The notes under the pieces: generated by a model | What the model was told of the DNA's origin: nothing | Database searches by the model: none | The model's input: the letters and a program-made list of their open reading frames with translations, nothing else | Source of the DNA: a virus | DNA length: 64,000 bases | Strand: one strand, 5' to 3' | IMG/VR virus record: IMGVR_UViG_3300012351_000008 | Coordinates: 1 to 64,000 of that record | Program-made: the position numbers and the translations under genes | In this document: one piece after another, positions 20,481 to 23,548 of the stretch | How the letters are laid out: every line of letters begins with the position of its first letter | Numbering within the stretch: the stretch's first letter is position 1

Positions 20481-21440
20481 ATGCAAGACATCGTAATTTA
20501 TCAAACAAAAGAGGTTATGACGCTAGATCAATGTATTCTAGCCTGGATTGCCGCCAAGAAAGGGAGATCAAACAGTAGCAAGACAGAAAAAGCCTATCGA
20601 GAAACACTTGGACAGTTTCGTTTGCTGTTGCAGGGGTATAAACGTGATCTCGATAGTGATCCTGGTATTATTGCGCCGCTGGCCCAGGGGTGGGCAGAGC
20701 AGACCACCAGTACACGACGTACTGAGGTGACACCTGCAACGTATAACCAGCGTCTAGCAATTCTCTCAAGCTTCTATGAGTATGCGATCAAAAATGAAGT
20801 GCTGCAGCGTAACCCGATTGAACGTGTAGAGCGGCGTAATCCAAACAAACAATATCAAGCCAAACAAATTGATACCAAGAAAGTTAAAACCGGCCTGGCT
20901 GCCATTGATCGCTCTACAGATGAAGGTAAGCGGGATTATGCAATCCTGAGTATTATGCTGGCAACTGGAAAGCGTGTGTCAGAAATTGCCAATATTCTTT
21001 ATGGGGATATCCAAAAGCAGGGTGATACTGTGCTTCTCTCCTGGCCTCGATGTAAGGGAAACAAAAAACTTGATCCTGACGTGCTGAAAGAAAAGACAAC
21101 GAGGGTTCTATACGAATATCTCCATATGTCTTATGGCTCAAAACTTGGACATTTGGCAAATGATGCGCCGATCTGGCTTTCCTTCTCAGATCGCAATAAA
21201 GGAAAGCAGATAGGAGCACGAACAATCCAGCGAATCTGCGAGACATATCTTGGTACGTCAAAAGCGCACGCGACTAGACACACCTGGGCCGTTGCTATGA
21301 TGAACCAGAATGCTACCCTTGCTCAAATTGGGCGCGGGCTCGGACACTCCAATTTGAAAACAACCTCAGACTACCTTGAAGAGTTGAGCGCCTATGAGAA
21401 TCCGTATGCAAGCGCGTTAGAAGATATGTTTGGGATATAG
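20481..21440 (+). CDS. Tyrosine recombinase (XerC/D-like integrase or resolvase)
   Basis: TGKRVSE, KG, HATRH, LGH, TT.DY catalytic residues; N-terminal SAM-like domain. Confidence 0.92.
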   Translation: MQDIVIYQTKEVMTLDQCILAWIAAKKGRSNSSKTEKAYRETLGQFRLLLQGYKRDLDSDPGIIAPLAQGWAEQTTSTRRTEVTPATYNQRLAILSSFYEYAIKNEVLQRNPIERVERRNPNKQYQAKQIDTKKVKTGLAAIDRSTDEGKRDYAILSIMLATGKRVSEIANILYGDIQKQGDTVLLSWPRCKGNKKLDPDVLKEKTTRVLYEYLHMSYGSKLGHLANDAPIWLSFSDRNKGKQIGARTIQRICETYLGTSKAHATRHTWAVAMMNQNATLAQIGRGLGHSNLKTTSDYLEELSAYENPYASALEDMFGI

Positions 21441-21452
21441 GGAGATGAAGAG

Positions 21453-21737
21453 ATGACAAAGTGCCTTGAACAATTACCCCTCTTTGGGCGATTGGAACTT
21501 TCTGATGATGGGAAGCAACTCCTTCTTGATGGCATACTGCTTGCTCCAGATCAGGTGATTACGTATCACTGCAAGAATGGAAGCGAGCAAGTACCAGCAC
21601 GGGTCACCTATGATAGCCGGTACGGCTGGTATCTTCGCTTTGAAGAGTTTCTAGGTCATACATATCTTAATAGACCACTCACTCACAAGAGTATTCAGTA
21701 TATAGTTGCGAGTAGTCAAGGAGAAAATAGCTTATGA
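21453..21737 (+). CDS. Hypothetical protein
   Basis: GGAG RBS; QLPLF near the N-terminus. Confidence 0.55.
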   Translation: MTKCLEQLPLFGRLELSDDGKQLLLDGILLAPDQVITYHCKNGSEQVPARVTYDSRYGWYLRFEEFLGHTYLNRPLTHKSIQYIVASSQGENSL

Positions 21738-21997
21738 GCCAACCGACTACAAACCCACGCCTACTAGAACAACGCAATGGCATATCCTTTGTTCAATGTT
21801 TGCAGATGTGCCTCCAACAACGCGATCTGGTCACCGAGTGGCAACGGCTCTCAGGCAAGAAGCTCGTAGCCAGCAGCCCTCTAGACCGCATGATTGACGA
21901 GGCCACCGGCTACGACATGGCGATCATGCAAGAGTTTGCTGATTTTGTCTATGAATTTGTATGGCAGTCATTTGGATTGGAGGAAGTAAAGCCATGA
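21734..21997 (+). CDS. Hypothetical protein
   Basis: ATGA coupling. Confidence 0.6.
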   Translation: MSQPTTNPRLLEQRNGISFVQCLQMCLQQRDLVTEWQRLSGKKLVASSPLDRMIDEATGYDMAIMQEFADFVYEFVWQSFGLEEVKP

Positions 21998-22458
21998 GTG
22001 AGTACGAAACACTCGATCTGGACGAAGAGGAAGAAGAAGAAACCGATGAAGGGTGGCAAGAATACTGGCTTGTGGTTGGAGGCGTGAGCAAGAAATCTGA
22101 ACAGGCTATTGAATCAGTCGATGGCAAAGTCTTACGTATGACAGCATCCACTCGTGGCTACACACGACAACTTCAGGAGACAAGAATCAATACTTATTAC
22201 CCTGGGGTTCCTCCTATCTATGCCGTGTGCCTGCTCTACCTTCCAGACGATGATGATCAGGGATTCAGTTTCTTTACCGATGATGGAGAGAAGGCCCGTC
22301 ATTTTTTCATTGCCTCTGCTGATGAGCACCATGATCTGTATATCTATTGCGACGATGGTTCTATTCCACGATTTGAATCAGATACAACGCAGCTCCGCTT
22401 AGTTACCGAGGAAGAATGGTTTGCTATTGCAGACGCGAAGGGGGAAAGTAAGTCATGA
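21994..22458 (+). CDS. Acidic hypothetical protein
   Basis: GGAGG RBS, ATGA coupling. Confidence 0.6.
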   Translation: MSEYETLDLDEEEEEETDEGWQEYWLVVGGVSKKSEQAIESVDGKVLRMTASTRGYTRQLQETRINTYYPGVPPIYAVCLLYLPDDDDQGFSFFTDDGEKARHFFIASADEHHDLYIYCDDGSIPRFESDTTQLRLVTEEEWFAIADAKGESKS

Positions 22459-22739
22459 GTGAGAGGTTTCAAGCTCTATCAGATGGCTATAGCTGGAAAG
22501 TCATTGACACCGAAATCACACATTTTATCCGTGGGCGCGGACATGTCGTCCATCACGTCCAGTGGTGCCAGGATGAGCAAGAAGCGTGCAGCATCGCTGA
22601 TAACCTTAATAAGACACGAGGGCACGCAGCTAACGAACCGAAATGTTGTGTTTGCGGCTCGCAACCTGCCGGGCCTGCCGGTGAAGAGAATCCGCGTTGT
22701 GGCCCCTGCTGGTCCAAATTGGCAGACATGCATGGATAG
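22455..22739 (+). CDS. Hypothetical protein with C-terminal CxxC pair
   Basis: Coupled ORF. Confidence 0.55.
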   Translation: MSERFQALSDGYSWKVIDTEITHFIRGRGHVVHHVQWCQDEQEACSIADNLNKTRGHAANEPKCCVCGSQPAGPAGEENPRCGPCWSKLADMHG

Positions 22740-22953
22740 AGAAACGATGAGGCAAGAACTACAAACCCGTCTCTGGCAACACGACAACCTCTGGCGCATT
22801 CAGTCCCTTCGCCAACTACAGGACCGTCACGGCACGCTGCAAGATGCCTGGGAGAGCCGCCGTGACGAGGATGGGCACGTTCTGTTCTTCGAGACGGAGG
22901 AGCAGGCCAGGGAGCATATGGACAGTGAAGCAAAGAAAGTTGAGGAAGAATAA
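22732..22953 (+). CDS. Hypothetical protein
   Basis: Coupled ORF. Confidence 0.5.
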   Translation: MDRETMRQELQTRLWQHDNLWRIQSLRQLQDRHGTLQDAWESRRDEDGHVLFFETEEQAREHMDSEAKKVEEE

Positions 22954-23228
22954 TGGAAGACGAAATAGCATCACGTGACCTACCAGATGGACGCCGGGCC
23001 TATATCATCCACTTAACCTATGGTCGGGCCCGTATCTGCATTGCTAACAAATATTGTCCCATGAGCATCGACAACTCGTATTGATATGCTACTCCTGAGC
23101 TTGCAGTTAGCAAGTTAAACGAGTGGGACGTTGAAAAAGAAGCAGAACCCGATGGCTGGTTCCGTAGCCCCAATACTGGCAGGCGAAGACCAGATGGTGA
23201 CGCGAGCAAAGAATATATCTCATGGTGA
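22953..23228 (+). CDS. Putative selenoprotein (91 aa, in-frame UGA at codon 44)
   Basis: TAATG coupling and GAGGA RBS; ...SIDNSY-U-YATPELAVSKLNEWDVEKEAEPDGWFRSPNTGRRRPDGDASKEYISW*; SECIS-like hairpin after the UGA. Confidence 0.7.
23089..23126 (+). promoter_or_regulatory. Bacterial SECIS-like hairpin
   Basis: Lower stem CTACTC/GAGTGG, upper stem AGCTTGC/GCAAGTT, loop AGTTA starting 20 nt after UGA 23082-23084. Confidence 0.65.
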
Positions 23229-23239
23229 TCGCTAGTACA

Positions 23240-23280
23240 ATAAAGGTGCCCGTATGTCTCCCCAGACCCGGCACCTTTAT
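23240..23280. terminator. Bidirectional terminator-like hairpin
   Basis: ATAAAGGTGCC/GGCACCTTTAT. Confidence 0.7.
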
Positions 23281-23548
23281 CGCTGCTATTGCCAACTGAG
23301 AGGACAATTTAGCTCTATTGCTCAGATAATACAGCCTATCGAGCAACGATGTATACACTATAGATGAATCATCGACACTTGTCTATAGAGGTTCATTGAA
23401 CGCAAAAGCACCAGGCCAACAATCCGCTTTCTGGTTGTGCTATGAAATTTAATTAACATGCACAGAATCGTTGCCCTGGTGCCTTCGCTTGAGTGGGATA
23501 CCTTACTGCCTGGCAAATTCTCAAAATGTGTACCCTCTTTGGATACCG
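23240..23548 (-). ncRNA. Putative structured ncRNA (about 300 nt)
   Basis: Extended -10 TGGTATAAT (23562-23554); long hairpin 23488-23402 whose G-U pairs form only on the minus strand; ends at the terminator. Confidence 0.45.

Follow-up and report, generated by a model that had tools for sequence, protein, structure and literature searches.

The segment at positions 22953-23228 of a phage genome is very probably one gene for a 91-residue protein in which the UGA at codon 44 is decoded as selenocysteine (Sec) through a SECIS element, as judged from a comparison of this sequence with its relatives. The source is an uncultured, temperate phage of about 80 kb, represented by the 79,961-bp linear IMG/VR virus record IMGVR_UViG_3300012351_000008; the window, meaning the whole stretch of DNA that was analysed, consists of the first 64 kb of this record (64,000 nucleotides). 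Beyond the individual gene, our findings make it likely that phages carry selenoprotein families of their own. A large clade of the family described here would then retain Sec and exploit host SelB and its recognition of SECIS elements, with an output gated by Sec competence and selenium.

Organization of the candidate gene and its neighborhood

The elements discussed in the following sections are listed below, with coordinates given for the window.

22942..22946, + strand: Shine-Dalgarno-like GAGGA, 6 nt 5' of the start codon, read directly from the sequence
22953..23228, + strand: candidate selenoprotein gene, 91 codons plus stop, whose ATG lies in a TAATG overlap with the TAA of the upstream ORF
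23082..23084, + strand: in-frame UGA, proposed Sec codon (codon and residue 44), within a [W/Y]-U-[Y/F] motif in predicted beta-strand 4
23089..23126, + strand: whole two-stem hairpin of the MFE structure, with the lower stem formed by CUACUC (23089-23094) and GAGUGG (23121-23126)
23098..23116, + strand: candidate SECIS upper stem-loop, AGCUUGC/GCAAGUU (7 bp) with the loop AGUUA at 23105-23109, from the MFE fold and the 5-nt-loop alignment
23226..23228, + strand: true stop TGA; homologs terminate within a few codons of the same site
23231..23292, + strand: strong hairpin 3' of the gene (-23.4 kcal/mol, z = -3.8), a possible terminator of the integrase-proximal operon of small genes

A tyrosine integrase is encoded at 20481-21440 and is followed by a chain of small overlapping ORFs on the + strand, of which the candidate gene is the last. 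Stop and start codons overlap along this chain from 21453 to 22953, as exemplified by the ATG at 22732 on the TAG at 22737-22739 and by the TAATG at 22951-22955; none of these small ORFs has a Pfam match. The initial annotation had proposed a gene starting at 22953, with TAATG coupling and a GAGGA ribosome-binding site, that reaches a TGA at codon 44 and then stays open. All of these elements are present in the sequence, and the TGA at 23082-23084 is indeed followed by 47 further open codons, up to the TGA at 23226-23228.

The same annotation had placed an operon terminator after the gene, a proposal that holds in part. A strong hairpin does occupy 23231-23292; its internal loop is large, its U-tract is weak, and it is not among the calls of a consensus terminator scan.

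The hairpin downstream of the UGA

The RNA structure initially described, a two-stem hairpin with CTACTC/GAGTGG and AGCTTGC/GCAAGTT stems and a loop AGTTA 20 nt downstream whose second base is G, is present exactly as reported. The upper stem pairs 23098-23104 with 23110-23116, and the loop, which starts 20 nt after the UGA, presents G-U at loop positions 2-3. Folding gives an MFE of -17.1 kcal/mol (z = -2.8), a value equalled in 1 of 200 shuffles, and a second fold at -16.1 kcal/mol. The lower stem is also found in L094, the metagenome locus whose product is 87% identical to that of the window, and the evidence from covariation is limited to the upper stem.

A published model of bacterial SECIS elements (bSECIS) combines a 3-9-nt loop closed by a stem of 4-16 bp, a G at loop position 1 or 2 that is usually followed by G or U, a spacing of 16-37 nt between UGA and loop, and an MFE of at most -7.5 kcal/mol (PMC13188914). 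The window hairpin falls within all four of these ranges, with a 5-nt loop on a 7-bp stem, the loop sequence AGUUA, a spacing of 20 nt and energies of -17.1/-16.1 kcal/mol for its two folds; the earlier proposal that it fits the bacterial consensus is thus borne out. At its gathering thresholds Rfam returned no match, and at a permissive threshold it returned one chance match to a lncRNA.

When the window was scanned with loose criteria (a frame open to either side of a UGA, a stem of 7 bp or more and an early loop G), about 10 places qualified, among which only 23082 sits in a real gene frame. In a single sequence, then, the pattern does not exceed chance, and its significance rests on the comparison with relatives.

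Codon 44 among relatives

Among 149 homologs in protein databases, position 44 is occupied by Cys in 87, by D in 30, by E in 7 and by W, H and Q in 4 each; the closest of these homologs, P0002, has Trp. TGA alleles are necessarily absent from such collections, as gene callers end the protein at TGA. Reading the aligned codon at the DNA level in 80 IMG/VR loci, which were collected via the C-terminal motif, we found TGA in 45, TGC or TGT in 32, a Tyr codon in 2 and TAG in 1. With a Duganella genome locus that has a Cys codon, the total rises to 33 Cys loci versus 46 TGA loci, counting the window. A second collection of 24 metagenome loci, obtained with peptide words from the window's own product, has TGA at the aligned codon in 20 cases, including all ten of the closest relatives (L094, with 87% identity to the window product, and L095-L103, with 59-63%). 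Altogether, more than 60 distinct sequences from many samples and independent metagenomes share this TGA, at 39-87% protein identity to the product of the window. The window gene itself is a low-GC member of the family (49% GC) and is 49% identical to L007, a TGA allele with a W-U-Y motif and with the same codon and hairpin type.

The initial annotation had regarded Cys or TGA at position 44 of homologs, together with conservation on both sides, as support for its proposal, and Trp, a variable residue, a sequencing error or a unique nonsense mutation as grounds for abandoning it. TGA was found in more than 60 relatives and Cys in most of the members without TGA, and the homologs are conserved on either side of the codon. 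Recurrence of the TGA in so many divergent relatives excludes a mutation or error unique to this phage. The placement of the UGA at a conserved Cys is correct for the 87 of 149 homologs with that residue and is qualified by the occurrence of D, E, W, H and Q. The objection based on Trp or a variable residue therefore applies in part, given Trp in P0002 and D, E, H or Q elsewhere; it weakens the case for a classic catalytic redox Cys and leaves recoding unharmed. Other subfamilies accept D, E, H, Q or W here, which is evidence against a catalytic thiol that every member requires; ligand binding or a nucleophilic role is left as a guess.

Substitution patterns show in-frame purifying selection on both sides of the TGA. 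In the comparison with L094, dN/dS amounts to 0.03 before the TGA and 0.13 after it, with heavily diverged synonymous sites (upstream of the TGA, synonymous divergence is saturated), from which it follows that the part after the TGA is translated in frame.

A tree built without column 44 places the window in a clade of 46 rows comprising 42 TGA, 2 Cys, 1 Tyr and 1 TAG. This mostly-Sec clade is separated, with an SH-aLRT of 97, from a clade of 33 rows in which Cys predominates (29 Cys, 3 TGA), and the tree needs at least five state changes at position 44.

Several individual loci depart from these general patterns. Within the mostly-Cys clade, L061, L063 and L073 form a small TGA subclade that has either the loop CGUGU (L063) or no clear hairpin; it may represent an independent switch from Cys to Sec. 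L051 is a Cys allele inside the Sec clade that retains a relic GGTC. Also within the Sec clade, L020 (3001-3249; IMG/VR 3300031939_000001) has TAG at the Sec codon and an intact GGUC hairpin, which could reflect recent inactivation by mutation, an error, or a UAG that is itself decoded as Sec. The TGA allele L075 (3001-3244) contains stops or a frameshift in its N-terminal half, upstream of the Sec codon, and with this half interrupted it is probably a decayed copy.

Conservation and covariation of the hairpin

The ungapped alignment of 45 distinct TGA alleles, for which 31 Cys alleles served as comparison, shows how the hairpin is distributed between the two states. A stem of at least 5 bp closing a 4-5-nt loop at columns 24-27/28 was found in 40 of the 45 TGA alleles versus none of the 31 Cys alleles, which confirms the expectation set out initially that the hairpin would be kept only in TGA alleles. 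The loop GGUC defines a main class of 34 of the 45 alleles; the low-GC members L041, L104-L106 and L113 have AGUU, and the class with 5-nt loops has NGUKN. Conservation of the loop columns G25 and U26 is 90% or higher across all 45 TGA alleles.

Base pairing in the stem is maintained through compensatory substitution. In alignment A3, 80% of cells are paired, versus 65% in shuffles and 32-68% in controls with a slid register; compensatory changes occur in 7 of 8 pairs, and cells with double changes number 65 versus 26, a result that none of 500 shuffles reached. The rarer 5-nt-loop subclass, which comprises the window (AGUUA), L094-L103, L007, L010, L034 and L063, behaves similarly: its own alignment (A5) has pairing in 92.7% of cells, compared with 18-54% when the register is slid, and compensatory changes at 4 of the 8 pairs.

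The signature of the RNA is also visible in the protein. Two Ala codons have third positions, columns 21 and 30, that are base-paired with each other in 36 of 45 TGA alleles versus 13 of 31 Cys alleles, and residue 52 is Val in 42 of 45 TGA alleles versus 3 of 31 Cys alleles. The GU of the loop supplies codon positions 1-2 of residue 52 (GUN), which implies that the RNA signal dictates the amino acid Val. One natural exception, L101 (1646-1693), has the loop CAUGA, where G is replaced by A at loop position 2 and Val52 by Met.

Protein family and predicted fold

When the UGA is read through, 22953-23228 encodes a full-length member of a large and mostly viral protein family that has no name and whose members are about 95 residues long. 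A profile search against 1.84 billion representatives matched 1079 of them at E <= 1e-3, typically proteins of about 90-115 residues, with matches that cover profile positions ~6-91 and hence both sides of the TGA. The family motif, D-x-W-C-Y ... A ... W ... EPxGWxRHPx[ST]GRRRPxGD...EY, which the initial annotation had put forward, was recovered in the alignment of homologs. The window product agrees with the full-length profile, including the invariant W69, R77-R79, G82, D83 and E87.

An AlphaFold2 model based on 61 homologs forms a single compact domain (pLDDT 95.4, pTM 0.85) in which four strands are combined with a helix and a C-terminal segment; the strand formed by residues 39-45 includes residue 44. 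Taken with the sequence evidence, this predicted fold indicates that 22953-23228 is one gene and not two.

Searches for a function of the protein gave little. Pfam, PHROGs and NCBIfam contain no family for it or for 61 of its homologs, and a sequence-profile search of the PDB found no solved relative. Foldseek against the PDB and BFVD returned nothing at E <= 1e-3; the best score of a wide VIA-align search (Z 6.5) was within the noise range, with mostly partial matches resembling propeller blades, and in these structure searches the predicted fold matched no known redox fold. For the homolog P0005, the ESM Atlas listed only clusters of "hypothetical protein," the largest of which is 74% viral. 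Gene neighborhoods were equally silent: no neighbor family is common to more than 6 of about 100 loci, and Pfam matches on the neighbors were uninformative. Sec forms contain on average 0.5 other Cys and no second conserved Cys, so this is not a CxxU redox motif. A function can be proposed only tentatively, and it is rather unlikely to prove correct: a small protein of the early or lysogeny region that binds a phosphate-rich ligand via the invariant [ST]GRRRPxGD...EY motif, with the lone Sec or Cys serving as a reactive or ligand-binding residue.

The family extends beyond small phage proteins. P0139, a giant protein of 3083 aa, contains 10 matched stretches of the domain of about 90 residues, which indicates that the domain exists as a tandem repeat too. 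In cultured phages, only distant members were found (Caulobacter phages and Sinorhizobium phage Phosso), with no TGA allele recognised; the Phosso copy, the sole cultured-phage copy read codon by codon, has Cys. In bacteria, the family was detected in 2 of 400 sampled Gammaproteobacteria genomes and in 3 of 401 sampled genomes from the order of Duganella, and none of these copies has an in-frame stop.

Sec machinery, host and genetic code

Genes for selA, selB, selD and tRNA-Sec are all missing from the 79,961-bp record; the earlier observation that selA, selB, selC and selD are not visible in the window therefore extends to the entire record. We also searched 46 related records, namely the 45 with a TGA allele and that of L020 with TAG, and found no tRNA-Sec above the Rfam cut-off, the best matches being tRNA-Tyr and tRNA-Ser. 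In one TGA-allele phage record (L093:1501-1591), ARAGORN called a tRNA of no determined identity with an odd anticodon loop; its score with the tRNA-Sec model, 34.8 bits, falls short of the 47-bit cut-off. The Duganella genome with the Cys allele has selB, so its Cys does not stem from a lack of machinery. With regard to possible hosts, the cyanobacterial HIP1 motif GCGATCGC has 0 occurrences in the window.

Outside codon 44, the genetic code is standard. Under table 11 the window is 89% coding, and TGA, the commonest stop, ends 41 of 94 ORFs; when TGA is read as sense, genes merge and coverage does not increase. The window contains no tRNA.

Proposed decoding and alternative explanations

In the mechanism that we propose, the mRNA hairpin directly after the UGA would act as a bacterial-type SECIS, with a 7-bp upper stem and the loop A-G-U-U-A. 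By analogy with E. coli fdhF, the host SelB-GTP-Sec-tRNA(Sec) complex would bind this loop and supply Sec to a ribosome that has paused on the UGA. Where this delivery comes too late, translation would terminate with release of a 43-residue fragment devoid of the helix and of the conserved C-terminal motif. Given that the phage has no Sec machinery, production of the complete protein should require selenium and a host competent for Sec. Decoding of codon 44 as Sec has, in our assessment, a high probability from the comparative evidence; SelB binding, selenium incorporation and host dependence are what we infer.

The alternative with the most to recommend it, although improbable, is a programmed read-through that does not involve SelB, where the hairpin slows termination or aids near-cognate decoding of the UGA by tRNA-Trp or tRNA-Cys. 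It predicts a fixed ratio between the 43-residue peptide and a full-length protein that contains an ordinary amino acid. UGA read-through has a precedent among phages in the A1 protein of Q-beta, both near-cognate residues (Trp and Cys) are found at position 44 in homologs, and the phage record is without Sec machinery. However, a hairpin that serves as a generic roadblock needs no conserved G-U at a fixed distance that forces Val52 in 42 of 45 alleles, nor would it need the exact GGUC tetraloop of fdhF, present in 34 alleles, or the agreement with all four parts of the bSECIS model. The UGA could instead be a genuine stop, so that only the 43-residue peptide is made, while the region downstream either encodes another product or has a non-coding, regulatory role. 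With table 11 the ORF does end at 23084, and since bacterial Sec insertion is usually inefficient, the truncated peptide is probably made in any case. Nevertheless, this explanation is very improbable: the 47 downstream codons hold the most conserved motif of the family and evolve with the dN/dS of 0.13 noted above, the homologs of the Cys form are single uninterrupted proteins, and the model is a one-domain structure with the 39-45 strand running across the TGA. A division into two separate genes was rejected on the grounds that no allele has a start codon after the TGA and that the fold is a single domain.

Two further explanations can be regarded as extremely improbable. A broken gene or an error would mean that the TGA arose by nonsense mutation from TGY (Cys) or TGG (Trp) or by a mistake in sequencing or assembly, and TGA is indeed one substitution from TGC, TGT and TGG, while the window phage is represented by a single assembly. 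A pseudogene or sequencing error was nonetheless rejected, as the TGA recurs in independent metagenomes, in more than 60 distinct sequences that include L094, with coding intact on both sides. The hypothesis that TGA stands for Trp or Gly throughout the genome, in the manner of stop-codon-recoded phages, would agree with the Trp in the closest database homolog; against it stand the 89% coding density under table 11, the 41 of 94 ORFs ended by TGA and the lack of a suppressor tRNA both in the window and among the best tRNA-like matches of the 46 records. It was rejected because TGA is the commonest stop and its reading as sense brings no gain in coverage. Sec insertion directed by the SECIS-like hairpin remains our preferred explanation.

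Novelty and significance

We found no phage-encoded selenoprotein in the searchable literature, the coverage of which is incomplete. Neither a 2026 review of the prokaryotic selenoproteome (PMC13188914) nor the paper describing BSepDB (PMC13326102) mentions phages or viruses. If our interpretation is correct, the family would be a new one beyond the 111 bacterial selenoprotein families catalogued, and it would consist of small proteins, predicted to fold well, with a lone Sec in place of Cys outside known redox motifs. The output of a phage protein could then hinge on the Sec machinery and selenium of the host, which would tie phage biology to trace-element status in a way not recognised before.

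A Sec-encoding family that resides mainly in phages would also have practical consequences. Such genes in viromes would be systematically truncated by gene callers, and the protein databases that we searched held only non-Sec forms. The window contributes a divergent, low-GC member from a temperate phage and a second, covarying subclass of SECIS. A compact element of about 20 nt with such rich natural covariation should be useful for studies of SelB recognition; the CAUGA loop of L101, for instance, is a natural variant that bears on the importance of the loop G.

Comparison with known selenoprotein and phage systems

Engagement of phages with the Sec system has been hinted at by tRNA-Sec genes in huge phages from wastewater, in which tRNA genes only and no selenoprotein gene were described (PMC10747093). 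Unlike those huge phages, the present phage and the 46 related records are without a tRNA-Sec over the Rfam cut-off.

Catalogues of selenoproteins cover cells and a few poxviruses. The only virus-encoded selenoproteins named in a 2021 review of viral recoding are the GPx1 homolog of molluscum contagiosum virus and the GPx4 homolog of fowlpox virus (PMC8310308). As in these poxviruses, the candidate is encoded by a virus and would rely wholly on host Sec machinery, and the fowlpox SECIS likewise lies within the coding region (PMC8310308). The poxvirus cases, however, concern eukaryotic viruses, not phages, that captured cellular GPx genes and use eukaryotic SECIS elements with SBP2-mediated decoding, whereas the phage has a bacterial host, a SECIS of the bacterial type and a mostly viral family with no cellular enzyme counterpart.

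The closest parallel is provided by E. coli fdhF, the gene for formate dehydrogenase H, in which, as in other bacterial selenoprotein genes of this type, Sec (here Sec140) is specified by a SECIS within the ORF that is read by SelB. Of 5426 complete E. coli genomes, 5419 have this 42-nt SECIS in fdhF, with an identity of 95-100% that is hardly ever below 99%. In both systems, an in-frame UGA with Cys homologs is directly followed by a stem-loop within the coding region, whose small loop at the apex, some 20 nt beyond the UGA, contains a G-U. The main phage class even shares the identical GGUC tetraloop, which our fold of fdhF places at nt 22-25 from the U of UGA, compared with 24-27 in the main phage class. 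The differences are equally clear. The gene is phage-borne, not cellular, and its product, from a family of about 90 residues, lacks both a partner Cys and a known redox fold. Its hairpin is distinguished from that of fdhF by the loop AGUUA, a perfect 7-bp stem without a bulged U (compare U17 of fdhF) and a loop 2 nt farther from the UGA. The strict fdhF type, defined by GGUC plus a bulged U, is therefore not represented by the window, while GGUC occurs in 34 of 45 relatives. By analogy, the window element would nevertheless work as the fdhF element does and can be regarded as a variant of it.
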